This document shows, one piece after another, positions 50,837-61,542 of a DNA stretch of 64,000 bases. The notes below the pieces were generated by a model, which saw nothing but the letters and a program-made list of their open reading frames with translations, was not told where the DNA came from and did no database searches. The translations under genes and the position numbers were made by a program. Source of the DNA: an uncultured Maricaulis sp. (GTDB lineage Bacteria; Pseudomonadota; Alphaproteobacteria; Caulobacterales; Maricaulaceae). The DNA is taken from the NCBI RefSeq assembly GCF_963976135.1, contig NZ_CAXBKN010000001.1, forward strand, positions 22,885-86,884. Reading direction: 5' to 3'. Position 1 is the first letter of the stretch. Each line of letters starts with the position of its first letter.

Positions 50837-52183
50837 ATGTTCGATAAAATCCTGATCGCCAATCGCGGCGAAATCGCCCTTCGCATCCACCGGGCGTGCC
50901 GTGAAATGGGCATTCGCACCGTCGCCATCCATTCGGAGGCCGACGCCAATGCCATGCATGTGCGCCTCGCCGACGAGAGTGTCTGCGTCGGCCCGGCTTC
51001 GGCCGCCAAGAGCTATCTCAACATACCCTCCATCATCGCGGCGGCGGAAGTCACCGGCGCCCAGGCGATCCATCCGGGTTATGGCTTCCTGTCTGAAAAT
51101 GCCCGCTTCGCCGAAATCGTCGAGGCTCACGACCTGACCTTTATCGGCCCGACGGCCGCGCATATCCGGATGATGGGCGACAAGATCACCGCCAAGAAGG
51201 CCGTGATGGCTGCCGGGATCCCCGTCGTGCCCGGCTCGGAAGGCGGCGTTTCCAATATCAAGGAAGCCAAGGAAATCGCGGGCGGGATCGGCTACCCCGT
51301 GCTGGTGAAGGCGGCATCGGGTGGCGGCGGTCGCGGCATGAAGGTCGCGGAAAACGAGGAAAAGCTCCAGGAAGCCATGGAGACCGCTTCGGCGGAAGCT
51401 GCGGCGGCCTTTGGCGATGGCACCATTTATCTCGAGAAGTATCTCGGCCGGCCGCGCCATATCGAAATCCAGATCCTCGCCGACATGCACGGCAATGTCG
51501 TGCATCTGGGTGAGCGCGATTGTTCCTTGCAGCGCCGTCACCAGAAAATCCTCGAAGAGGCCCCCTCGCCGGCCCTGACGGCCGAGGAGCGCGCCACGAT
51601 CGGCGAGACCGTGCGCAAGGCGATCGAGGTAATCGGCTATCGCGGCGTCGGCACGATCGAATTTCTCTACGAGAACGGCGAGTTTTATTTCATCGAGATG
51701 AATACGCGCCTGCAGGTCGAACACCCGGTGACCGAAATGATCACCGGCATTGATCTGGTGCGCGAACAGATCCGTGTCGCCGATGGTGCGCATCTCGATA
51801 TCCGCCAGGAAGACATCACGTTTGAAGGCCATTCGATCGAATGCCGGATCAATGCGGAAAACCCCCGCACCTTCGCGCCCTCGCCGGGCAAGATCACCGA
51901 TTTCCATGCGCCAGGCGGGCTCGGTGTGCGGCTCGATTCGGCGCTCTATACCGGCTATTCCGTGCCGCCCTATTATGACAGCCTGATCGGCAAGCTGATC
52001 GTGCATGGCCGCACCCGCGCCGAGGCGCTGCTGCGTCTGCGCCGCTCGCTGGAGGAAATGGTCGTCGGCGGGATTGAGACCTCGATCCCGATCTTCCTCA
52101 ACCTGCTTGAGGAACCGGAATTCGTGAATGGCGATTACCATATCCGCTGGCTGGAAGACTGGCTGGCCAGCCGCGAGGCCTAG
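50837..52183 (+). CDS. accC: Acetyl-CoA carboxylase biotin carboxylase
   Basis: ILIANRGEIA, HPGYGFLSEN, GGGGRGM, EMNTRLQVEHPVTE. Confidence 0.98.
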   Translation: MFDKILIANRGEIALRIHRACREMGIRTVAIHSEADANAMHVRLADESVCVGPASAAKSYLNIPSIIAAAEVTGAQAIHPGYGFLSENARFAEIVEAHDLTFIGPTAAHIRMMGDKITAKKAVMAAGIPVVPGSEGGVSNIKEAKEIAGGIGYPVLVKAASGGGGRGMKVAENEEKLQEAMETASAEAAAAFGDGTIYLEKYLGRPRHIEIQILADMHGNVVHLGERDCSLQRRHQKILEEAPSPALTAEERATIGETVRKAIEVIGYRGVGTIEFLYENGEFYFIEMNTRLQVEHPVTEMITGIDLVREQIRVADGAHLDIRQEDITFEGHSIECRINAENPRTFAPSPGKITDFHAPGGLGVRLDSALYTGYSVPPYYDSLIGKLIVHGRTRAEALLRLRRSLEEMVVGGIETSIPIFLNLLEEPEFVNGDYHIRWLEDWLASREA

Positions 52184-52198
52184 ACAGGCGGAGACTTG

Positions 52199-52867
52199 AT
52201 GCGCGGATTCGGGGCCACAGAACTTCTCGAATGCTACGCCCGCGGGGTCTTCCCGATGGCGGAAGGTCGCGACGATCCACGCATCTACCTGCTCGATCCG
52301 GACGAGCGCGGCATCCTGCCGCTCGATGATTTTCATATCCCGCGCCGATTGCAGCGCACGGTGCGCCAGGAAGTGTTCCAGGTCAGCATCAATCTCGACT
52401 TCCACGCCGTGGTCGCAGGCTGTTGCCAGTCGGCACCGGGCCGCGAGGAGACCTGGATCAATGACGGGATTTTCAGCCTCTATGCCGAGCTGCATCGCCA
52501 GGGCCATGCCCATAGCGTCGAGTGCCGGCGCGGCGGCGAGCTGGTCGGTGGCCTCTATGGCGTCTCACTTGGCGGCGCCTTCTTTGGCGAGAGCATGTTT
52601 TCGCTGGAACGTGATGCCAGCAAAGTCGCGCTGGTACATTTGCTCGCCCGTTTGAACGCCGGCGGCTATGCCCTGCTCGACACCCAGTTTACGACAGAAC
52701 ACCTGGAAACCTTCGGCGCCCACTCGATCACGCGCGATGACTACAAGGCGCGGCTCGCCCGGGCATTGAAACTGGATGGGGATTTCCTGGCGTTACCGGC
52801 GCAGGTCAATGGCCAGGTGGCGCTGCAGCAGGCTCAAGCCTTGCAGTCGAGCACCCAGACATCATAG
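52199..52867 (+). CDS. aat: Leucyl/phenylalanyl-tRNA--protein transferase
   Basis: YARGVFPM, TWIN, LVGGLYGV.LGGAFFGESMFS, DASKVAL, LLDTQF.T.HL. Confidence 0.95.
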   Translation: MRGFGATELLECYARGVFPMAEGRDDPRIYLLDPDERGILPLDDFHIPRRLQRTVRQEVFQVSINLDFHAVVAGCCQSAPGREETWINDGIFSLYAELHRQGHAHSVECRRGGELVGGLYGVSLGGAFFGESMFSLERDASKVALVHLLARLNAGGYALLDTQFTTEHLETFGAHSITRDDYKARLARALKLDGDFLALPAQVNGQVALQQAQALQSSTQTS

Positions 52868-53298
52868 ATCGCGTGCTCAAGTGGGTTTTGTGCCGGCCGC
52901 GAGGCGAACATCCAGCCGGAGAAGACCATCTCGCCCGCAATATCGACGCCAAAGCCATCGGTCCGGCGATCGACGACCTGCAGGAAGGCATAGGTCTCGG
53001 GCGTCTCTTCCGGCGGCCGGCGGCGGCAATACCGGGCTGTGATGGTCAGGGCGCCGAAATCGACACTGTCGCCAATGCGCACTTCAAAATCGCGCGTCCG
53101 CGCTGTCACCTTGTCGAGGCCGCGCAGCACAACAATTGAGCCGGGCTGGCTCGACAATTCCTGGCTTCCCCGCGCCCCGGGATCATCGCCGCGCAGACTG
53201 GCTGCGGGGTCAGACAAATTCCCGGAATTGCCATCCTGGGCCTGCAGGCCAAACGGCAGGCAGGCGGCGAGAGTCAGGGCTGTGAAAAAACGCATCAT
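52834..53298 (-). CDS. DUF2155 domain exported protein
   Basis: Signal peptide, LRGLDKVTART, FSGWMFASRP..NPLEHAIYDVWVLDC. Confidence 0.88.
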   Translation of the reverse strand: MMRFFTALTLAACLPFGLQAQDGNSGNLSDPAASLRGDDPGARGSQELSSQPGSIVVLRGLDKVTARTRDFEVRIGDSVDFGALTITARYCRRRPPEETPETYAFLQVVDRRTDGFGVDIAGEMVFSGWMFASRPAQNPLEHAIYDVWVLDCKA

Positions 53299-53360
53299 GG
53301 CTTGAAACTGCCCCGCGATTAAGGCGCTGTCGAGGCGGTTCGCCCGACAGGCGAACCGTT

Positions 53361-53765
53361 TTATTCCGGCGACCAGGCTTCGTAATCGCCGGTCGAGGAC
53401 TGGCGCTTGCTCGCGGTGACGAGGCTGCCACTGGGCCGGTAGGCATACACCGTACCGGTCAGATTGGGATGATGATCCTTTTCCCAGACCTGACGCGGCA
53501 GCGGCGCTTCGCTGGGTGGCTGATCGAAAGTGTGGTGCAGCCAGCCATGCCAGTCGGACGGCACGCGCGAGGCGTCGGCATAACCCTTATAGATCACCCA
53601 GCGGCGCTTATTGCCGTCCGGACCGGTCACGCCGCTCTCTTCGAAATAGCGATTTCCGTAATCGTCTTCGCCAACCTTTTTGGCACCGCGACGCGAAAGC
53701 GTCAGCAAGGTGCCCGGCGTGGCATCATTCCACCAGATGAAAATCTTGGAGATAAAACCCAACAT
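53361..53765 (-). CDS. NADH:ubiquinone oxidoreductase subunit NDUFA12-like protein
   Basis: VGEDDYGNRYF, RRWVIY.G..DASRVP..WHGWLHH, PNLTGT, GDYEAWSPE. Confidence 0.92.
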   Translation of the reverse strand: MLGFISKIFIWWNDATPGTLLTLSRRGAKKVGEDDYGNRYFEESGVTGPDGNKRRWVIYKGYADASRVPSDWHGWLHHTFDQPPSEAPLPRQVWEKDHHPNLTGTVYAYRPSGSLVTASKRQSSTGDYEAWSPE

Positions 53766-53923
53766 GGCGTGCGGCTCCGAGTCGGTCGCGGCGAGGAATT
53801 CCACCGTATATGCCTTCGCATGGCCATCGGGTCCAGTCTTGAACACTGCGGGGTTATGACGCGCAGCCCGGCGCGGTAGACTGAGGCCAGCTCCGGGCGA
53901 TTCGGGGACCAGAGGGTGGTGTC

Positions 53924-56893
53924 ATGAAACTCAATCGTCGCTTTGCCGAAGCGCTTGCTGCCGCTGGTGACCGCTATGCTTTCGTGTCGCGCGCGGCCGA
54001 TGCCTATGGTGACCCTGACAGCGAGAAGGACGGCGATACCGCCCGCCCGATTACGGTGCCGCAGGACTGGAGCCCGGCGGCCATCCACGCCCTCGCCGAT
54101 CTGCTCGACCAGCCCCGCCCTGTATCGACCCGTCCGCGCCCCGGCCTGCAGGCCTTTGGCGGCCTCTCACCACAGCTGGCCGAAGGCAGCGAGCTGGCGG
54201 CCGAGACGGGTTATGATGCCGTCATCGCGCGCATTGCCGGCTCGCTGACCTGGTCGGTCGCCCGGCATGGCGGGCTCGACAGCCCGGACGAGGCCCCGGT
54301 CTTTCTCGGGGAACTCGCCGCCAGCCTGCGCGGCCGCTATGTCATTCCCGACGCGGAATTATGCCGTCATGGCGGCATTGACTGGGCCTACGGCCTGTCA
54401 GTCCCGGCGGCGGCAATCCGGCCACAAGCCACGACCATTCACGCCGGCAGCGCCGCCGCCCCGGCGCAATTGCGGGGCGTCGCAGAAAGCGCATTGCGCG
54501 GCGGTATGCTCGATGTCGGTGCCCGCGTCACGCGCGACCGGCTGGATGCGATTGCCCAGGCCTGTCACCGCTGCTCCGGTGAGGCCAATGAACGCTTTGA
54601 CCCGCGCCGCAATGCCGCCCTCGCCCGCGCCATGCGGGCCGCCTTGCGTGATGGCGTGGCGGAGGAGGCGGTTGAGCGCGCCCTCGCCCTGGCCCGCCAA
54701 GGCGTCGCTGAAGATGCGCTGACGGATCTGCAGCCGCAGAGCCAGAACCAGCCGGTCACCATACTGCAAATCCCGAACGCGCTGGGCCGCGCCATCGAGG
54801 CCGACGAGACCTGGCAGTTCGGCGGCGATGATGATCCCGGGCGCACCAGTATTCGCGCCCGCGAGCTACGCGACAATATCGCCCGCACGGTGTGGAGTTT
54901 CGGTGCTCCCTCGCTCGCTTTCCAGGCCGGCCCGGCCGCCAGCGGCCCGGCCCTGCATATCAATCTTCCCGCCTTCCTTGAGCCACAGACGGGTTTCCGC
55001 GCCGACCTGCTGGCCGATGCGATGCGGCTCTGGTCCCATGCTCTGACCCTGAGCACCGCCCGGACAGCCGAGACCGCCGGAACGCTTAATCTGACGGGCC
55101 TTGGCGCACTGTTGAGCGCCGGCGGCATGGCCTATGGCAGTCGCGAAGCGCGCGCGGTCGCGGCTGCGATCGGACGGCTGGCCAGCCTGTGCCTGCGCGA
55201 AACCGGCGGCGAGCTTGGTGCCCAGGCCCCCGGCCTCGGCCCCGATCCGGAAACGGGTGAGCTGCCCGGCCCCTTTGCCACACTGACCGCCGAGCTGGAA
55301 CGGGCCTCCTCCCGCTTTGCTCCGCGTTCCGCCCTTGCCCGTCCCGGCCTGACCCTGACCAGCAGCCGGCCCGACCCGGCGATTGCCGGCCTGTTCGACA
55401 ATGACAGCCAGGGTGCGGCCGCGGTCGAAGGCGCGATCATCGCCGATGGCGGCATTTCCGGCGGCCACCGCTTGCGCGATTGTGTACGCGCCGGCCTGCG
55501 CCAGCTCGGCGCCAGTCCGACAGAAATCGAAATCGCCGAGGACCATGCTGCCGGGCACGGCACATTGCGCGGTGCGCCCGGCATATCCGTCGCGGCGCTG
55601 CAACGTGCTGGCTTGCCCGACGCCGCGATTGAACGGGTGGAGGATATAATCGGTGACGGCGCCTCCGTGCGCCATGCGCTCAATCGCTGGACGCTCGGCG
55701 AAGGGGTCTGCCGCGAACAGCTGGGGCTGTCGAGCGCTGTGCTGGAGGCCGAAGGGCGCTCGCTGGCGCGCACGCTCGGCTTTGGCGAGGCCGAGATCGC
55801 TGCGGCCGACCGCCATGCTCATGGCAGCGGCACGCTGGAGGATGCGATTGATCTGCCGCTGGACTGGCGCGCCGTCTTCGCACCGGTCACGCCGCAGGAT
55901 CAGCTGGCCATGAGCGCGGCGCTCGAGAGCCAGATCAACGGGAGTGTCGAGACCCAATTGGCGCTTGATGGCGAGCACACGATTGATGATGTCGCCGCGA
56001 TTCTGGACCGGGCCTCGGCGCTCGGCCTGCGCCAATTGGAAATTCGCCGGACCCGTTCGGGTCTGCTCGACCTCTTGCCGGCGATCGATTTCGACAAGGG
56101 TGATTACACGACCGAGCCGGTCAAGGAACGCCTCATCGAGCGCACGGTCGAGCGCACTGTGGAACGCGTGGTCGAACAACCGGCGGCACGGCGCAAACTG
56201 CCCGACCGGCGCAAGGGCTATATCCAGAAAGCCACCGTCGGCGGCCACAAGGTCTATCTCCACACCGGCGAATTCGATGATGGCGAGGTCGGCGAGATCT
56301 TCATCGACATGCACAAGGAAGGCGCCGCCTTCCGCTCGCTGATGAATAATTTCGCCATCGCCATCTCGATCGGACTGCAATACGGCGTCCCGCTCGAGGA
56401 ATTCGTCGACGCCTTCGTCTTCACCCGCTTCGAGCCGGCCGGCGCTGTGACTGGCAATGATTCCATCCAGCACGCGACTTCGATCCTGGACTATCTCTTC
56501 CGCGAGCTGGGCGTGTCCTATCTCGGACGTGAGGATCTGGCCGAACTCGCGCCGGATACCGCTGATCATGGCGGTATCGGCAAGGGCGTCGCGGAGGAAA
56601 AACTCTCGCAGACCGATGCCGCCCGATTTATTTCCAAAGGCTTCAGCCGCGGCCAGGTGCCCGACAATATCGTGATGTTCGCCAATGCCGCGCGCAAGCT
56701 TGCCAGCGGTCAGGCCGGGGGACCGGATATGGGCGAGATCGAGATGCATCATGCCGAGCCCGCATCGCGGGGCTCGAAGCGTCAGGATGTCAGCCTGTAT
56801 TCCGGCGATCCCTGTCCGGAATGCGGTCATTTCACCGTCGTGCACAGCGAAAATGCGCATCGTTGCGATGCCTGCAACTGGACCTCGGGCTGA
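53924..56893 (+). CDS. Class II (B12-type) ribonucleotide reductase homolog lacking catalytic motifs, with conserved C-terminal TSCPD-type domain and Zn ribbon
   Basis: NrdJ-like remnants (VPQDWS, DWAYG, ACHRC..FDP..N.AL, ARELRDNI..W); RRKLPDRRKGYIQKATVGGHKVYLHTGEFDDGEVGEIFIDMHKEGAAFRSLMNNFAIAIS; CPEC..CDAC. No NPCxE anywhere in the protein. Confidence 0.85.
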   Translation: MKLNRRFAEALAAAGDRYAFVSRAADAYGDPDSEKDGDTARPITVPQDWSPAAIHALADLLDQPRPVSTRPRPGLQAFGGLSPQLAEGSELAAETGYDAVIARIAGSLTWSVARHGGLDSPDEAPVFLGELAASLRGRYVIPDAELCRHGGIDWAYGLSVPAAAIRPQATTIHAGSAAAPAQLRGVAESALRGGMLDVGARVTRDRLDAIAQACHRCSGEANERFDPRRNAALARAMRAALRDGVAEEAVERALALARQGVAEDALTDLQPQSQNQPVTILQIPNALGRAIEADETWQFGGDDDPGRTSIRARELRDNIARTVWSFGAPSLAFQAGPAASGPALHINLPAFLEPQTGFRADLLADAMRLWSHALTLSTARTAETAGTLNLTGLGALLSAGGMAYGSREARAVAAAIGRLASLCLRETGGELGAQAPGLGPDPETGELPGPFATLTAELERASSRFAPRSALARPGLTLTSSRPDPAIAGLFDNDSQGAAAVEGAIIADGGISGGHRLRDCVRAGLRQLGASPTEIEIAEDHAAGHGTLRGAPGISVAALQRAGLPDAAIERVEDIIGDGASVRHALNRWTLGEGVCREQLGLSSAVLEAEGRSLARTLGFGEAEIAAADRHAHGSGTLEDAIDLPLDWRAVFAPVTPQDQLAMSAALESQINGSVETQLALDGEHTIDDVAAILDRASALGLRQLEIRRTRSGLLDLLPAIDFDKGDYTTEPVKERLIERTVERTVERVVEQPAARRKLPDRRKGYIQKATVGGHKVYLHTGEFDDGEVGEIFIDMHKEGAAFRSLMNNFAIAISIGLQYGVPLEEFVDAFVFTRFEPAGAVTGNDSIQHATSILDYLFRELGVSYLGREDLAELAPDTADHGGIGKGVAEEKLSQTDAARFISKGFSRGQVPDNIVMFANAARKLASGQAGGPDMGEIEMHHAEPASRGSKRQDVSLYSGDPCPECGHFTVVHSENAHRCDACNWTSG

Positions 56894-56956
56894 TCAGCCG
56901 TCCGGCCCGGCGCGCAGCTTGCATCGGCCCCTGTATCTGGCTCGGAGCGCCTCATT

Positions 56957-57445
56957 ATGAAACGAATTTTGGCTGCCATCGCGATCTTATTGTCGGCATC
57001 CGCAGGTGCCCACGCCCAGGACGCGGCCCAGATTGCTCGCGTTCAGGCGGGCCAGTCCTGCCCGGGCTGCAACCTATTCCAGGCCGAACTCGGCTATCTT
57101 GACCTGCCGGGTATTGACGTTTCCGGCTCGCGATTGCGCCAGGCCAATCTCGCCCTTTCGACGATGAACCGTGCCAATTTCGACAATGCGAACCTGTCGC
57201 TCGCCAATATGTTCGGCGGCCGTTTCACCAGCGCCAGCTTCCGCAATGCGGATCTCACCGGCGCAGTCCTGGTCGGCGCCTATTTCGGCAGCGCCAATCT
57301 GAGCGGCGCCCAATTGAGCGGCGTCAACATCTCCGGTGCCGAAATGACCACCGCGATCGGCCTGACCCAGAGCCAGCTCAACGGCGCCTGCGGAGACCCG
57401 TCGACCCTGCTCCCGGCCGGATTGCATGTGCGCCCCTGCCGCTAG
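56957..57445 (+). CDS. Exported pentapeptide-repeat protein
   Basis: Signal peptide (AxA), CPGC, A(D/N)LxxA repeats, ACGD...PCR C-terminal cap. Confidence 0.92.
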   Translation: MKRILAAIAILLSASAGAHAQDAAQIARVQAGQSCPGCNLFQAELGYLDLPGIDVSGSRLRQANLALSTMNRANFDNANLSLANMFGGRFTSASFRNADLTGAVLVGAYFGSANLSGAQLSGVNISGAEMTTAIGLTQSQLNGACGDPSTLLPAGLHVRPCR

Positions 57446-57533
57446 ACCATGACCGGCGCGTTGGCCGGTGATGACAGTGGGATTACTGTGATTTAAGTCG
57501 TCACCAGCTGGATCGTGCTTTATCTCTGAACCC

Positions 57534-58772
57534 ATGCGGAACCCCGCCACCATATTGGCTCTCGCCCTGTTGAGCCTCCTGATCGGCACCCAGCCAGGAT
57601 GGGCCGTGGGCGATGACCATCCACGACGCGGACTGGCCATCGGCGGCGAGTGCGAATCCTGTGACTTTTCGGACAAGAATCTCGCGGGAGCGATCTTCAT
57701 CGGCGCCAATTTCGAAGGCTCGACCTTCGCGAATTCGGAGCTGGGCGGCACGACCATTGTCGAGAGCCGCTTTACCGATACCGAATTCACCCACACCATC
57801 TTGACCCATTCCCGGTTAAGTGGCGTCACCTTCCTGCGCGCCGATATGAGTGATGCCGACTTTACCGGTAGCCATATCGAACGCGTCAACTTCTCCGCCG
57901 CCTCGCTGGAAGATACGAATTTCACCGATACGCAAATGGCCTTTGCGACCTTTATCGGCAGCTCGCTGGAAGATGCGGTGTTTGCCAATGCGGTCCTCAA
58001 CCAGGCCAATTTCTTCCGCTCCCAGATCGGCGACGCAAACTTTCGCGGCGCTTCCCTGCGCGGCGCCAACTTCACGGAAACCACCGGCAGTGACACAAGC
58101 TTTCTTGATGCCGACCTGCGCGGGTCGAGTTTCGAGGATGCGGTGCTCGACAACGTCAACTTCACCGGCGCCAATTTGCGTGGCGTCAATTTCACGGCGG
58201 CCGTAATCACCAATGTAACGGGCCTGTCCAAAGAGGCCATGCGCGGCGCCTGCGGCGACGAGGCGACCCGGCTCGATGGCGGTTACGAACTGCCAACCTG
58301 CAACCCGAGCCGCAGCGTCACGGTCGGTGGCGGCGATAATGTCCGCTTTGGCTGGCGCGTCAGCCGTGGCGGCGATCATGGCTCCACAATCCGCCTGGAA
58401 GCCGAGGATGGCCGGATTGTCGAACTCCTGTCAGGCAATGGCGCGGTGCCGAATGTTCGTGGCGAGACCTTCGACGAGGAGACGCTGCGCGGCGTCTCGG
58501 CGGCGGCCTTGCGCGATATTGCCCGCGCTGAGCGTGAAATCCAGCGCGCCCGGATAGAGCAGAGCGAAGCGATCGCCCACACCGAGCGCGAACGCAGCCG
58601 CGCCCTGGCGCTGGCCGAAGCCCGTGCGGAAGCCCATGTCCAGGAAATGGAACGACGTGTGGAAGAATCCCGCCGCCGGGATAGAATGATGATCGAGCTT
58701 CAAGGCGATGGCGAGCACCAGATCTGGCTGAGCCCCAATCCTCACCGTCCACCTCCGCCGCCGGACCATTAA
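57534..58772 (+). CDS. Exported pentapeptide-repeat protein with C-terminal charged helix and polyproline tail
   Basis: Signal peptide, CESC, long run of pentapeptides, ACGD..PTC, E/R/A-rich helix, HRPPPPPDH end. Confidence 0.9.
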   Translation: MRNPATILALALLSLLIGTQPGWAVGDDHPRRGLAIGGECESCDFSDKNLAGAIFIGANFEGSTFANSELGGTTIVESRFTDTEFTHTILTHSRLSGVTFLRADMSDADFTGSHIERVNFSAASLEDTNFTDTQMAFATFIGSSLEDAVFANAVLNQANFFRSQIGDANFRGASLRGANFTETTGSDTSFLDADLRGSSFEDAVLDNVNFTGANLRGVNFTAAVITNVTGLSKEAMRGACGDEATRLDGGYELPTCNPSRSVTVGGGDNVRFGWRVSRGGDHGSTIRLEAEDGRIVELLSGNGAVPNVRGETFDEETLRGVSAAALRDIARAEREIQRARIEQSEAIAHTERERSRALALAEARAEAHVQEMERRVEESRRRDRMMIELQGDGEHQIWLSPNPHRPPPPPDH

Positions 58773-58796
58773 CGCCGGGCGGCGCGCCTGCCCCAT

Positions 58797-58830
58797 AGAA
58801 ACGGCCGGAGTTTGCGCTCCGGCCGTTTCT
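58797..58830. terminator. Bidirectional intrinsic terminator
   Basis: AGAAACGGCCGGAG-TTTGCG-CTCCGGCCGTTTCT 14-bp perfect stem between convergent genes. Confidence 0.88.
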
Positions 58831-58853
58831 CATCCTGGTGCGGGCAAGCCGGC

Positions 58854-60671
58854 CTAACTGGTCTTCTTGGCTTCCGGAATCACATTGCGAATATGCAGTT
58901 CGCGCAATTGCTTCATCTCGACCTCGGCCGGCGCATTCATCATCAGATCGCGCGCCTGCTGGTCTTTCGGGAACATCACGATTTCGCGCAGATTATCGAC
59001 ACCGGCGAGGATCATCACAATGCGGTCGACGCCCGGAGCGATACCGGCGTGCGGCGGCGCGCCATAGCGGAAGGCATTGAGCATGCCGCCGAATTCCTCT
59101 TCCACGGTCGCGGCATCATAACCGGCATGGGCGAAGGCTTTCAGCATCACATCGGGACGGTGGTTGCGCACCGCGCCGGAGGACAGCTCGATACCATTGC
59201 AGACAATGTCATACTGGAAGGCCTTGAGACCGAGCAGGGTCTCATCATCGCCCGCCTCGATCGCCAGAAATTCCTCGGCCGAGATTTGCGGCATCGAGAA
59301 CGGGTTGTGCGAGAAGTCGATCTTCTTGTTGTCTTCATCCCACTCATACATCGGGAAATCGACGATCCAGCAGAATTTGAAGACATTCTTCTCGCAAAGA
59401 TCGAGTTCCTTGCCGACGACATCGCGGGCGCGTCCGGCAAAGCTGGCAAAGGCTTTCGGCTCGCCAGCGGCGAAGAAGACGGCATCGCCGGCCTTGAGGT
59501 CGAGTGAAACCCGCAGGGCTTCGGTGCGTTCCTCACCGATATTCTTGGCGACCGGGCCAGCGGCCTCGAGCACGCCATCGGTCTCGCGCCAGAAGATATA
59601 GCCCATGCCGGGCTGACCATCCTTCTGGGCCCAGGAATTCATCCGGTCACAGAAGGCGCGGCTGCCGCCGGTCGGCGCCGGGATCGCCCAGACGGCGATT
59701 TTCGGATTCTTCTCGATCATGCCGGCGAAGACCTTGAAACCGGAACCGCGGAAGGTCTCGGTGACATCGCTCATCTTGATCGGATTGCGCAGGTCCGGCT
59801 TGTCGGAACCGTACCAGGCCATGGAATCGGCATAGGTGACGCGCTCGAAGGCGGTATTGGGCACGGTGCGACCATCGGCAAATTCGTCGAACAGGCCTTT
59901 CAGCACCGGCTCGATGACATTGAACACGTCTTCCTGGGTCGCGAAGCTCATTTCCATGTCGAGCTGGTAGAATTCGCCAGGTGCGCGGTCGGCGCGGGCG
60001 TCTTCATCGCGGAAACAGGGTGCGATCTGGAAATAGCGATCGAAGCCGGAGACCATGATCAGCTGCTTGAACTGCTGCGGTGCCTGCGGCAGGGCGTAGA
60101 ATTTGCCCGGGTGCAGACGCGAGGGCACGAGGAAATCGCGCGCGCCTTCCGGCGAGGAGGCGGTCAGGATCGGCGTCTGGTATTCGACGAAATCCTCATC
60201 GACCATGCGGCGGCGGATCGAGTCGATGATCTTCGAGCGCAGCACGATGCGCTTGTGCAGGCTTTCACGGCGCAGATCGATATAGCGGTGCTTGAGGCGA
60301 ACCTCTTCCGACCAGTCCGGCTCACCGAAGACGGGCAGCGGCAGCTCCTCCGCTTCCGACTGCACGGCGAGATCGCGCACCCGCACTTCAATCCCGCCGG
60401 TCGGCAGGTTTTCATTGAGCGCCTCGGCATCGCGGGCGACGACATCGCCGGTAATGGTGACGACGCTTTCAACGCGCAAGCGCTCAAGCCGTTCGAAATG
60501 CTCGCTTTCCGGCTCGAGCACGCACTGGGTGATGCCGTAATGATCGCGCAGATCGATAAAGAGCAGGCCGCCATGATCGCGCTTGCGATGGATCCAGCCG
60601 GAAATCCGGGCCGTCTGACCGACTTCACTCGGGCGAAGCTGGCCACAGGTATGGGAGCGATAAGCGTGCAT
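58854..60671 (-). CDS. aspS: Aspartate--tRNA ligase, probably non-discriminating Asp/Asn type
   Basis: [29 protein letters not shown] (His typical of the ND type), [31 protein letters not shown]. Confidence 0.97.
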
Positions 60672-60735
60672 GGTTTTCAAGGTCCGCAATGAGCGTGAAT
60701 GGAGTTGCCGCGACATGCCTGTGGCGGGGCCTCAA

Positions 60736-60741
60736 TGTCAA
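60736..60741 (-). promoter_or_regulatory. Probable -35 element (TTGACA) of the aspS promoter
   Basis: Perfect TTGACA 65 bp upstream of the aspS ATG; the -10 element is weak. Confidence 0.4.
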
Positions 60742-60787
60742 GGATTTGGGGGGAAATGGTGCAGTTGTGACACGCCGCGCATACCCA

Positions 60788-60916
60788 AATCTCCACGCGG
60801 CTGACCGCTGGAGGTTTGAGTGGATCACCTCGCAATGGGAGGTGTGTGGGACGCCGGCGAATGCCGGAGTTGTCGTAAGTTCAGTGGGACATCCATGACG
60901 TCCCACACGTGGAGAT
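60788..60916. ncRNA. Candidate structured RNA or palindromic element (unassigned)
   Basis: Nested inverted repeats and several hairpins between a terminator and the aspS promoter; not recognised as a known family. Confidence 0.35.
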
Positions 60917-60944
60917 GTGGTCGCGCCCCCTTCCCCCAAAACAA

Positions 60945-60973
60945 AAGGCGGCGCCGGGTTCCGGCGCCGCCTT
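60945..60973 (-). terminator. Intrinsic terminator after the His-rich gene
   Basis: AAGGCGGCGCCGG-GTT-CCGGCGCCGCCTT perfect stem; TTTTGTTTT tail on the minus strand. Confidence 0.88.
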
Positions 60974-60994
60974 CGTCATTCAGCTCGGCAAACG

Positions 60995-61369
60995 CTATTC
61001 CTGCGGCTGGTCAACCTCGTGCATATTGTGCTCGCCATGCGGCATATCATCGGCGGCTGAAGCCTCGTCAGCATGGTGTTCGGCATGGGATTCCGGTGCT
61101 GCCCCGGGATGGCGAGCAGCGTGGATCATGTCGTGGCAAGCATCGAACTTGACGCGGGTTTCGTCGTCCATGGCCGCCAGAACGGCGTCGTGAGCGGCCT
61201 GGTCGCCTTCGGCAACATCCGCCATCATTCCATCATACAACGCCAGACACTCTTCCTGTGTCGGTGCTGCGGCAGCCTCGCCGGCCATGTGGTGGTCGAT
61301 GGCAAATGCCGAGGTGCCAATCAGGCTCAGGCTCGACGCTGCCATCATGGCCAAAACGAACTTATTCAT
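60995..61369 (-). CDS. Exported His/Met-rich acidic protein
   Basis: AGGAGA SD, MNKFVLAMMAASSLSLIGTSAFA signal, mature part with 12 His, 7 Met and 2 Cys; own terminator. Confidence 0.85.
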   Translation of the reverse strand: MNKFVLAMMAASSLSLIGTSAFAIDHHMAGEAAAAPTQEECLALYDGMMADVAEGDQAAHDAVLAAMDDETRVKFDACHDMIHAARHPGAAPESHAEHHADEASAADDMPHGEHNMHEVDQPQE

Positions 61370-61542
61370 GGGGGTCTCTCTCCTGGATGACCGATGGGGC
61401 TCGCGCCCCGGATAACCGCCCCGGCCAGTTGCAACGCGGTGTCCGCGCCGACGGTCAGGGCGAGTCACCATGCGCCCGCTCCCGGCCCGGTGACAAGGTC
61501 GATCCGCATACCCACACGAGGCATCACGGCGAAATCGGTGAT

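Follow-up and report, generated by a model that had tools for sequence, protein, structure and literature searches.

Why is a gene kept as an intact frame at the locus of a class II ribonucleotide reductase (RNR) when the residues that make a reductase are gone from its product? This question is raised by a 64,000-nt stretch of DNA from an uncultured Maricaulis sp. (NCBI RefSeq assembly GCF_963976135.1, contig NZ_CAXBKN010000001.1), called the window in the following. A first-pass annotation had claimed an uninterrupted open reading frame (ORF) of 989 aa in it and had taken the product for a catalytically gutted NrdJ. The ORF, here named pseudo-nrdJ, was indeed found as a single frame on the forward strand (Table 1); position 56188, which had been given as its end, is not the end of the ORF (56893) but marks the onset of the well-conserved C-terminus. 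The frame starts with an ATG eight bases 3' of a Shine-Dalgarno-like GAGGGTGG. The neighbouring genes aat, DUF2155 and NDUFA12 were identified with Pfam, and the same trio adjoins true nrdJ in Bradyrhizobium, Niveispirillum, Methylobacterium and many other Alphaproteobacteria. Therefore, pseudo-nrdJ has to be seen as a positional ortholog of nrdJ; the earlier remark that it lies at the usual nrdJ position was correct. The explanation that we favour with good, though not full, confidence is that its product, pseudo-NrdJ, is a pseudoenzyme, the positional ortholog of an NrdJd-type RNR, which is kept for a catalysis-independent binding role.

No profile model for RNRs reached its cut-off with pseudo-NrdJ. 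NF005736, the equivalog of long NrdJ, gave 459.6 bits (cut-off 1737), nearly all of them from residues 519-989, the RNR barrel model PF02867 gave 10.3 bits (cut-off 23.9) and TIGR02504 19.3 bits (cut-off 399.95). The sole Pfam threshold passed was that of PF12637 (TSCPD), and a HMMER search against PDB sequences returned a weak, collinear match to NrdJ of Rhodobacter sphaeroides (7B9P/7B9Q). For comparison, 58 members of the family were aligned with 65 true long NrdJ from Alphaproteobacteria (123 sequences). In this alignment, pseudo-NrdJ has a gap of approximately 135 aa between its residues 160 and 196, comprising GPxQGH..PQPHACFIQ..KYGSGTG..KSGGTTRRAAK..DHPD, and the first redox Cys, carried by the PQPHACFIQ strand, lies inside the deletion. 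The finger loop lacks 19 aa, which include SNPCSE with the Asn, the thiyl-radical Cys and the Glu as well as the second redox Cys (TACNL); its position now reads ..LAFQAGPAASGPALHINL, LAFQAGPAASGPALHINLPAF, and the loop is missing in every degenerate sequence aligned. A further stretch of approximately 40 aa is missing after residue 440. The substrate motif APTGTIG is replaced by SRPDPAIAG (in the wider stretch, APTGTIGLVMDCDTTG by SRPDPAIAGLFDNDSQG), SGAISKTINMP in the region of strands I-J by NGSVETQLALD, ALYRDGSKLSQPL of true NrdJ in these strands by LEIRRTRSGLLDLLP / EIRRTRSGLLDLLP, and PNSPQWFNTG in the N-terminal domain by PDAELCRHGG (residues 142-151). With 989 aa, pseudo-NrdJ is about 250 aa shorter than true long NrdJ (about 1210-1260 aa).

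The strings quoted by the first-pass annotation, WSFGAPSLAFQAGPAASGPALHINL (residues 324-348, nt 54893-54967) and PDAELCRHGG, are present where it had placed them. It had described the landmarks of the enzyme as unrecognizable; indeed no catalytic landmark is left, but the comparison with the 65 true NrdJ revealed that most of them were deleted and did not drift. That the protein is kept full-length does not hold, since about 250 aa of the barrel are excised. The presumed loss of the equivalents of the catalytic Cys, Asn and Glu was borne out by the alignment. With every defining catalytic element absent and with HMM (hidden Markov model) scores far under the cut-offs, pseudo-NrdJ, as judged from its sequence, cannot be a ribonucleotide reductase any longer, in agreement with what had been proposed.

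The C-terminus of the protein gave a second sign of lost RNR function, which is independent of the barrel. All 28 true long NrdJ inspected have a six-Cys tail of the pattern CxxC-x11-CxxCxxC-x5-CS, all 91 degenerate proteins a four-Cys tail, CxxC...CxxC. In the NrdJd of Stackebrandtia nassauensis all six tail Cys are required for turnover supported by tris(2-carboxyethyl)phosphine (TCEP); a role as Zn ligands was proposed for Cys-920, 923, 936 and 939 and one as redox shuttle for Cys-933 and Cys-945 (2017, PMC5704485). When CDAC of pseudo-NrdJ is aligned with CDTC, the two missing Cys are the equivalents of Cys-933 and Cys-945. Thus, the putative Zn ligands of the ribbon are kept and the proposed electron-delivery pair is gone. 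The cysteine-rich domain (CRD) of the S. nassauensis enzyme has the same TSCPD-type domain followed by a CxxC...CxxC ribbon, of which pseudo-NrdJ keeps only the four proposed Zn ligands. For the CRD of NrdJd, oligomerisation was described, and it can reduce the active site in a different subunit (PMC5704485). With the equivalents of the redox pair absent, the electron-shuttle role of the CRD therefore cannot apply to pseudo-NrdJ; the role in oligomerisation could.

These losses bear on the idea that the protein is still an RNR that uses relocated catalytic residues or a new radical mechanism. In its favour, the RNR-like fold is kept and three Cys of an insert in the barrel (C..C.......C; insert I, see below) are conserved in most family members. 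Against it, two strands of the barrel have been physically removed together with the finger loop and the phosphate-binding motif, none of the RNR models attains its threshold, and the redox pair of the C-terminus is gone. The Cys of insert I are found in true NrdJ as well, and the active R. sphaeroides enzyme does not have them. We consider a cryptic reductase next to impossible.

Is the gene, then, simply decaying? An ortholog without internal stop was found in all 24 other Maricaulis genomes, with identities of 48-85%. Twenty-three of these are full-length (56-85% identity), have 978-994 aa and share a common aligned ATG; the remaining one is cut by a contig end. The protein from a Maricaulis metagenome-assembled genome is 78% identical to pseudo-NrdJ, and degenerate forms of 845-867 aa are present in Glycocaulis and Marinicauda. 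The ratio of non-synonymous to synonymous divergence (dN/dS), determined according to Nei and Gojobori (NG86) for the 14 closer Maricaulis pairs, amounted to approximately 0.05-0.19 over the whole gene; each part of the body that was once catalytic gave 0.01-0.28, the TSCPD domain 0-0.05. In three genes for true NrdJ, taken from a sister family, the ratio was 0.09-0.14 in the core and 0.01-0.03 in the TSCPD domain. The dead body is constrained about as strongly as live NrdJ, and the purifying selection, for which the first-pass annotation had suggested dN/dS as a check, is there. Synonymous divergence was lower in the TSCPD region (56186-56563) in most close Maricaulis pairs, for example 0.32-0.45 vs 0.37-0.89 elsewhere, and the clade of true NrdJ had no consistent drop in this region; codon bias, recombination or a constraint at the nucleotide level could be behind it.

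The composition of the gene is an argument for a pseudogene whose frame stays open by chance in G+C-rich DNA. The G+C content is 0.68-0.72 (0.70 overall) across 54000-56000 and about 0.62 in the flanks. GC3 of pseudo-nrdJ (0.76) is the same as in neighbouring genes, GC1 (0.76) and GC2 (0.56) are raised compared to aspS (0.64 and 0.41) because the body of the protein is rich in Ala, Gly and Arg (18% Ala in residues 1-720). Hence, the codon style, which had been called normal, is normal for the third position but not for the first two. Opposite pseudo-nrdJ, an antisense frame of 664 aa is open on the minus strand (54866-56860), which we judge to be a by-product of the G+C-rich coding sequence and no gene; it also speaks for chance, as it shows that a long frame readily stays open in this DNA. 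An open frame of chance origin is hard to reconcile with 24 of 24 congeneric orthologs free of internal stops, even at 48% identity, with a start shared by the 23 full-length ones, with the low dN/dS, with a GC3 above GC2, with a confidently predicted fold and with the longest stop-free frame of only 528 aa in 300 shuffles of the pseudo-nrdJ DNA. Decay is hardly conceivable on this evidence and, like cryptic activity, effectively excluded.

AlphaFold2, run on the alignment of 123 sequences, predicted the fold with a mean pLDDT (predicted local distance difference test) of 81.4 and a pTM (predicted template modelling score) of 0.74. Residues 1-720 were mostly above 90, likewise the N-terminal domain, which shares 23% of its residues with true NrdJ. 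Two linkers, 722-754 and 881-959, were disordered. A Foldseek search with the model returned 7B9P at an E-value of 2.3e-28 and a TM (template modelling) score of 0.50-0.54, followed by NrdJ of T. maritima (~1e-13) and class I R1 proteins (~1e-8). Foldseek, the collinear HMMER match and synteny support the RNR alpha/beta-barrel fold and common descent, the barrel being incomplete with two strands deleted. An enzyme homolog whose catalytic residues are gone and which is under purifying selection is, by the operational definition, a pseudoenzyme.

Conservation is distributed unevenly along the protein. The TSCPD domain is 93% identical to distant Maricaulis, 85% to other degenerate sequences and 77% to true NrdJ. 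The corresponding identities are 76, 50 and 36% for helical insert I, 63, 41 and 43% for the Zn ribbon, 55, 32 and 32% for insert II and 38-57, 24-34 and 18-26% for the five other regions of the body. Outside the C-terminus, columns that are invariant in the 123 sequences were found only in the two inserts of long NrdJ and in the last barrel strand. Helical insert I aligns to residues 307-455 of 7b9p, has the pattern GARVTRDRL..C..C....FDPRRNAALARAMRAALRDGV..ERALALARQG and contains N230, L233 and A240, each invariant in 123 of 123 sequences. Insert II, with a duplicated LG....I..A..HA.G.GTL..AP motif and NRWTLG, gives the best sequence match to 7b9p (residues 676-916); we take it to be the part of R. 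sphaeroides NrdJd known as the HUG domain, which serves as a lead only. In the strands C-E remnant, the end reads WSFGAPSLAF where true NrdJ has W..ADPG.QF. The constraint therefore appears to lie mainly on the TSCPD/Zn-ribbon module and helical insert I rather than on the former active site. A C-x2-C-x7/8-C cluster was seen in insert I (ACRRCSGD...CFDPRRN, window 54551-54600, residues 210-226). Most of the degenerate forms have kept it, as have many of the true long NrdJ; its third Cys is an Arg in this pseudo-NrdJ and the active R. sphaeroides enzyme does not have it. It may be a metal or redox site.

The most conserved part, the TSCPD domain, matched PF12637 with 51.3 bits (gathering cut-off 22.8) over residues 768-862. 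The TSCPD motif and conserved cysteines are presumably the hallmark of this family; the domain of pseudo-NrdJ has no Cys and TSILD in place of TSCPD, as is the case in true alphaproteobacterial NrdJ. A separate model of the C-terminal module reached a pLDDT of 65 and had no significant match in the PDB; the IscU entries 2l4x and 1q48 came up only at E-values of 1.3-1.6, and the topology in this weak model, three strands and then helices, is compatible with IscU. The C-termini of class II RNRs were described as IscU-like domain plus zinc finger (Burnim et al. 2022, PMC9669993). When the 126-aa TSCPD domain served as query, short proteins with 75-91% identity came up by the thousands, as if the domain were also encoded by genes of its own. 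The two that were checked on long contigs turned out to be fragments of frameshift-ridden long-read assemblies, and there was no evidence from this query and these two proteins for the TSCPD module as a gene of its own. In these public assemblies (L125, L126) aspS and accC are split likewise. Many "stand-alone TSCPD proteins" are frameshift-split nrdJ or pseudo-nrdJ and inflate the apparent domain architectures in databases.

The distribution of the dead form was determined by a search of 161 Caulobacterales genomes with the C-terminal module, the length of the frame being used as proxy for the dead or live state. The module was found in 150 genomes. A stop-free frame of less than 1100 aa was present in 107 of them (15 in family f1, 32 in f2, 28 in f3 and 32 in f4), and those in f1 belong to five genera, Maricaulis included. 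Frames of at least 1190 aa were found in 41 genomes (31 in family f6, nine in six other genera of f1 and one in f3). Two further matches were put in neither class: in f1 a frame of 1117 aa, of which only a part was matched, and in f5 a fragment located where a contig ends. In a sample of 41 genomes, every short frame was without PF02867 match and each one read through was without NPCSE; every long frame had both. In a control search, no match in Caulobacter vibrioides reached the cut-off of NF005736. In a tree of the whole protein and in one of the C-terminal module alone, all 29 degenerate sequences were set apart by a single branch, with a Shimodaira-Hasegawa-like approximate likelihood ratio test (SH-aLRT) value of 100 and 84, respectively. 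Both trees require one change only, and the degenerate branches are several-fold longer. Because of the long branches, the composition bias and the mixed family f1, one ancient inactivation is indistinguishable from a few parallel ones. Selection keeps the dead form across Maricaulis and probably in several related families; we regard it as a predicted clade-wide pseudoenzyme of a bacterial class II RNR.

A genome with a dead NrdJ has to make deoxynucleotides otherwise, and other RNRs were indeed found: a class I NrdA of 707 aa with NrdB encoded just downstream (contig C54) and a separate, intact NrdJ of 767 aa (contig C11, L001 853-3156, minus strand) with NPCGEQ, IAPTGTIS and a six-Cys tail. 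A class I RNR was present in 41 of 41 relatives sampled. The short NrdJ was found in eight of 25 Maricaulis and is patchy in sister families, which suggests an accessory, possibly horizontally acquired, B12-dependent RNR. True long NrdJ was restricted among the 41 relatives to family f6, plus a fragment in f5, and no genome sampled had it together with the dead form. A gene for NrdR is present in the genome. Class I nrdA has two NrdR-like boxes upstream, CCACTATATGTTGGGT and ACACTATACAGGATTT, at a distance of 33 bp from each other (contig C54, L002 about 1009-1060); the longest ORF call of this gene spans them, and the true start is probably the downstream MTTMTPP. With a crude consensus scan (at least 11 of 16 consensus positions within 300 nt upstream), an NrdR-like box was found at 33 of 71 true long nrdJ genes and at none of 27 pseudo-nrdJ genes. 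By this measure, the putative NrdR-type operator is lost from pseudo-nrdJ and kept by its class I counterpart.

Could pseudo-NrdJ serve one of these enzymes as a non-catalytic accessory subunit, by oligomerisation or by electron delivery in trans? In favour of this, the CRD of true NrdJd mediates oligomerisation and cross-subunit reduction (PMC5704485) and the module is a separate protein in split enzymes (PMC9669993). However, the proposed redox pair is missing in 91 of 91 tails, no sampled genome with the dead form has a true long NrdJ as partner, the short NrdJ has a six-Cys tail of its own and is absent from most Maricaulis, and NrdA has its own C-terminal CLAC pair, in an operon whose NrdR-like box pseudo-nrdJ does not share. 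Such a subunit appears quite improbable. The first-pass annotation had also considered a nucleotide or B12 sensor, that is, a dead barrel that binds adenosylcobalamin or a (deoxy)nucleotide and reports to a partner. The scaffold is predicted to be well folded, its remnants are under purifying selection (dN/dS 0.07-0.28) and the genome uses B12, because the short NrdJ is present. In RNRs, the KSGGTTRRAAK stretch is taken to carry alphaA/alphaB and loop 1, the canonical specificity-effector site. Since the whole stretch with this motif is deleted in pseudo-NrdJ, sensing of deoxynucleoside triphosphates (dNTPs) through the canonical specificity site is untenable. The finger loop that lines the active site is gone as well, any B12-dependent RNR is encoded in only eight of 25 Maricaulis, and no ligand-binding motif was identified in pseudo-NrdJ. 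A ligand sensor is thus unlikely.

What is left is a protein that probably works by binding, not by chemistry, most likely through its TSCPD/Zn-ribbon module. In general terms, the earlier suggestion of a repurposed scaffold or regulator still fits best, with the amendment that the constraint would lie on the C-terminal module and insert I, not on the former active site. We propose that long NrdJ already had a second, catalysis-independent activity in its accessory modules, most likely binding to or assembly with a conserved partner, or self-oligomerisation. The dNTP supply would then have passed to class I NrdAB, aided in some species by a separately acquired short NrdJ, upon which the catalytic core could have been hollowed out and the second job retained. 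A wider version of this proposal, which we put forward tentatively and hold to be rather doubtful, is that long alphaproteobacterial NrdJ is bifunctional altogether: TSCPD domain, ribbon and inserts would do a job unrelated to ribonucleotide reduction, for example with a conserved partner in replication, repair, redox or metal homeostasis, and the Caulobacterales forms would be natural separation-of-function mutants.

Several points weigh against the explanation favoured here. The gene is dispensable in some relatives, the module being missing in 11 of 161 genomes, each at least 90% complete (seven of eight genomes of one sister genus in f1 (g13), genus g21 and three f3 genomes of g3). For many pairs dS is near saturation and dN/dS is approximate, the fold model of the C-terminal module is weak, the assignment of the two lost ribbon Cys depends on the CDAC/CDTC alignment and the NrdR-box scan is a crude consensus match. 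Finally, the putative second function of the TSCPD/Zn-ribbon module is read from conservation alone.

Among the closest known systems is the long alphaproteobacterial NrdJd (NF005736/PRK07562; 7B9P/7B9Q), which is like pseudo-NrdJ in locus, domain order, inserts, TSCPD domain and zinc ribbon; compared to it, pseudo-NrdJ is without redox strand, effector loop, finger loop, APTGTIG, two of the six tail Cys and the NrdR-like box. In the split NrdJa+NrdJb of Pseudomonas aeruginosa (PMC4520616, as summarised in PMC9669993) the TSCPD/zinc-finger module is on a separate polypeptide. It is separable from the barrel as a unit there and serves an active barrel next door, whereas here the attached barrel is dead and the genome is without active long NrdJ. 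NF005401 (PRK06948), "ribonucleotide reductase-like protein", is an RNR-like family that is not named reductase; pseudo-NrdJ matched it with 24 bits (E-value 1.4e-5, residues 647-712) at a cut-off of 906 and is not a member. R1 homologs of the betaherpesvirus M45/UL45 type lost their catalytic residues and are retained because they bind proteins, a task that is not enzymatic. They belong to class I, are viral and directed at eukaryotes, have neither TSCPD domain nor zinc ribbon and are thus an independent case. In databases, the protein and its relatives are named "hypothetical protein", "TSCPD domain-containing protein", "ribonucleoside-diphosphate reductase alpha chain" (JGI) or "ribonucleotide reductase" (one M. 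maris record), and a conserved, catalytically dead bacterial NrdJ was not described in the literature searched. New are also the putative Zn-ligand Cys kept without the redox pair and the NrdR-like boxes placed before class I nrdA and before none of the pseudo-nrdJ genes.

The features of the locus are compiled in Table 1. Beyond the two pentapeptide-repeat genes downstream of pseudo-nrdJ lies aspS on the minus strand. Throughout Caulobacterales, live and dead nrdJ alike have one or two pentapeptide-repeat genes 3' of them; where the locus extends far enough, aspS lies past these genes on the other strand. As specific partners of pseudo-nrdJ the pentapeptide-repeat genes were rejected, since they are also located 3' of true nrdJ (Hellea, family f6). 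Rfam gave no match in 52000-61500 nor near the other two RNR genes, and neither a sigma-70 consensus nor a terminator was found around pseudo-nrdJ. No RNA-seq run contained the locus. The only candidate RNA run, of unknown type, was uninformative on expression: its contigs were of low depth, came from a mixture of relatives and had peaks on conserved segments only.

Table 1 Pseudo-nrdJ, its domains and its neighbours, with positions in the window
Feature	Residues	Position	Strand	Basis
aat		52196-52867	+	Pfam
DUF2155		52834-53298	-	Pfam
NDUFA12-like		53361-53846	-	Pfam
Intergenic region, 77 bp, NDUFA12 to pseudo-nrdJ		53847-53923		Upstream scans
pseudo-nrdJ ORF, 989 aa + stop	1-989	53924-56893	+	Single uninterrupted frame; intact orthologs and dN/dS
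N-terminal domain, weak remnant of class II RNR N-domain	1-160	53924-54403	+	PF08471, E 0.007, under cut-off
Scar of ~135-aa deletion	161-195	54404-54508	+	Alignment vs 65 true NrdJ
Helical insert I, common to true long NrdJ	196-262	54509-54709	+	Identity, 7b9p alignment
Barrel remnant, roughly strands C-E	263-340	54710-54943	+	Alignment, model
Finger-loop scar (FQAGPAASGPA)	333-343	54920-54952	+	Alignment; 19 aa missing
Barrel remnant, roughly strands F-H (ALHINLPAF, LNLTGLGALL)	341-480	54944-55363	+	Alignment, model
Insert II, specific to long NrdJ	481-650	55364-55873	+	Match to 7b9p; pLDDT 87-97
Barrel remnant, strands I-J	651-720	55874-56083	+	Alignment, model
Disordered linker, VER[TV] repeats	721-754	56084-56185	+	pLDDT <50
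TSCPD domain, most constrained part	755-880	56186-56563	+	PF12637
Linker with conserved ISKGFSRGQVPDN motif	881-955	56564-56788	+	Orthologs, model
Four-Cys zinc ribbon, CPEC..x13..CDAC	956-989	56789-56890	+	Cys counts
Pentapeptide-repeat gene 1		56957-57445	+	Pfam
Pentapeptide-repeat gene 2		57534-58772	+	Pfam

In sum, the annotations "ribonucleoside-diphosphate reductase" and "ribonucleotide reductase" (JGI, some GenBank records) are wrong in that they ascribe B12-dependent, oxygen-independent dNTP synthesis to Maricaulis and its relatives; most Maricaulis genomes encode only the class I RNR, which depends on oxygen. Few enzymes have been studied as thoroughly as RNRs. An IscU-like/TSCPD domain and a zinc ribbon end most dimeric class II RNRs, yet the only established roles of this module are re-reduction and oligomerisation. 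Here, it sits nearly unchanged (77% identity to true enzymes, dN/dS near 0) on a gutted reductase, with its own proposed redox Cys gone, which argues for a function independent of ribonucleotide reduction. Pseudo-NrdJ thus offers a natural system for finding the function of the TSCPD/zinc-ribbon module, and if Caulobacter crescentus has the dead form, as the census suggests, the role of the domain would be directly testable by genetics.

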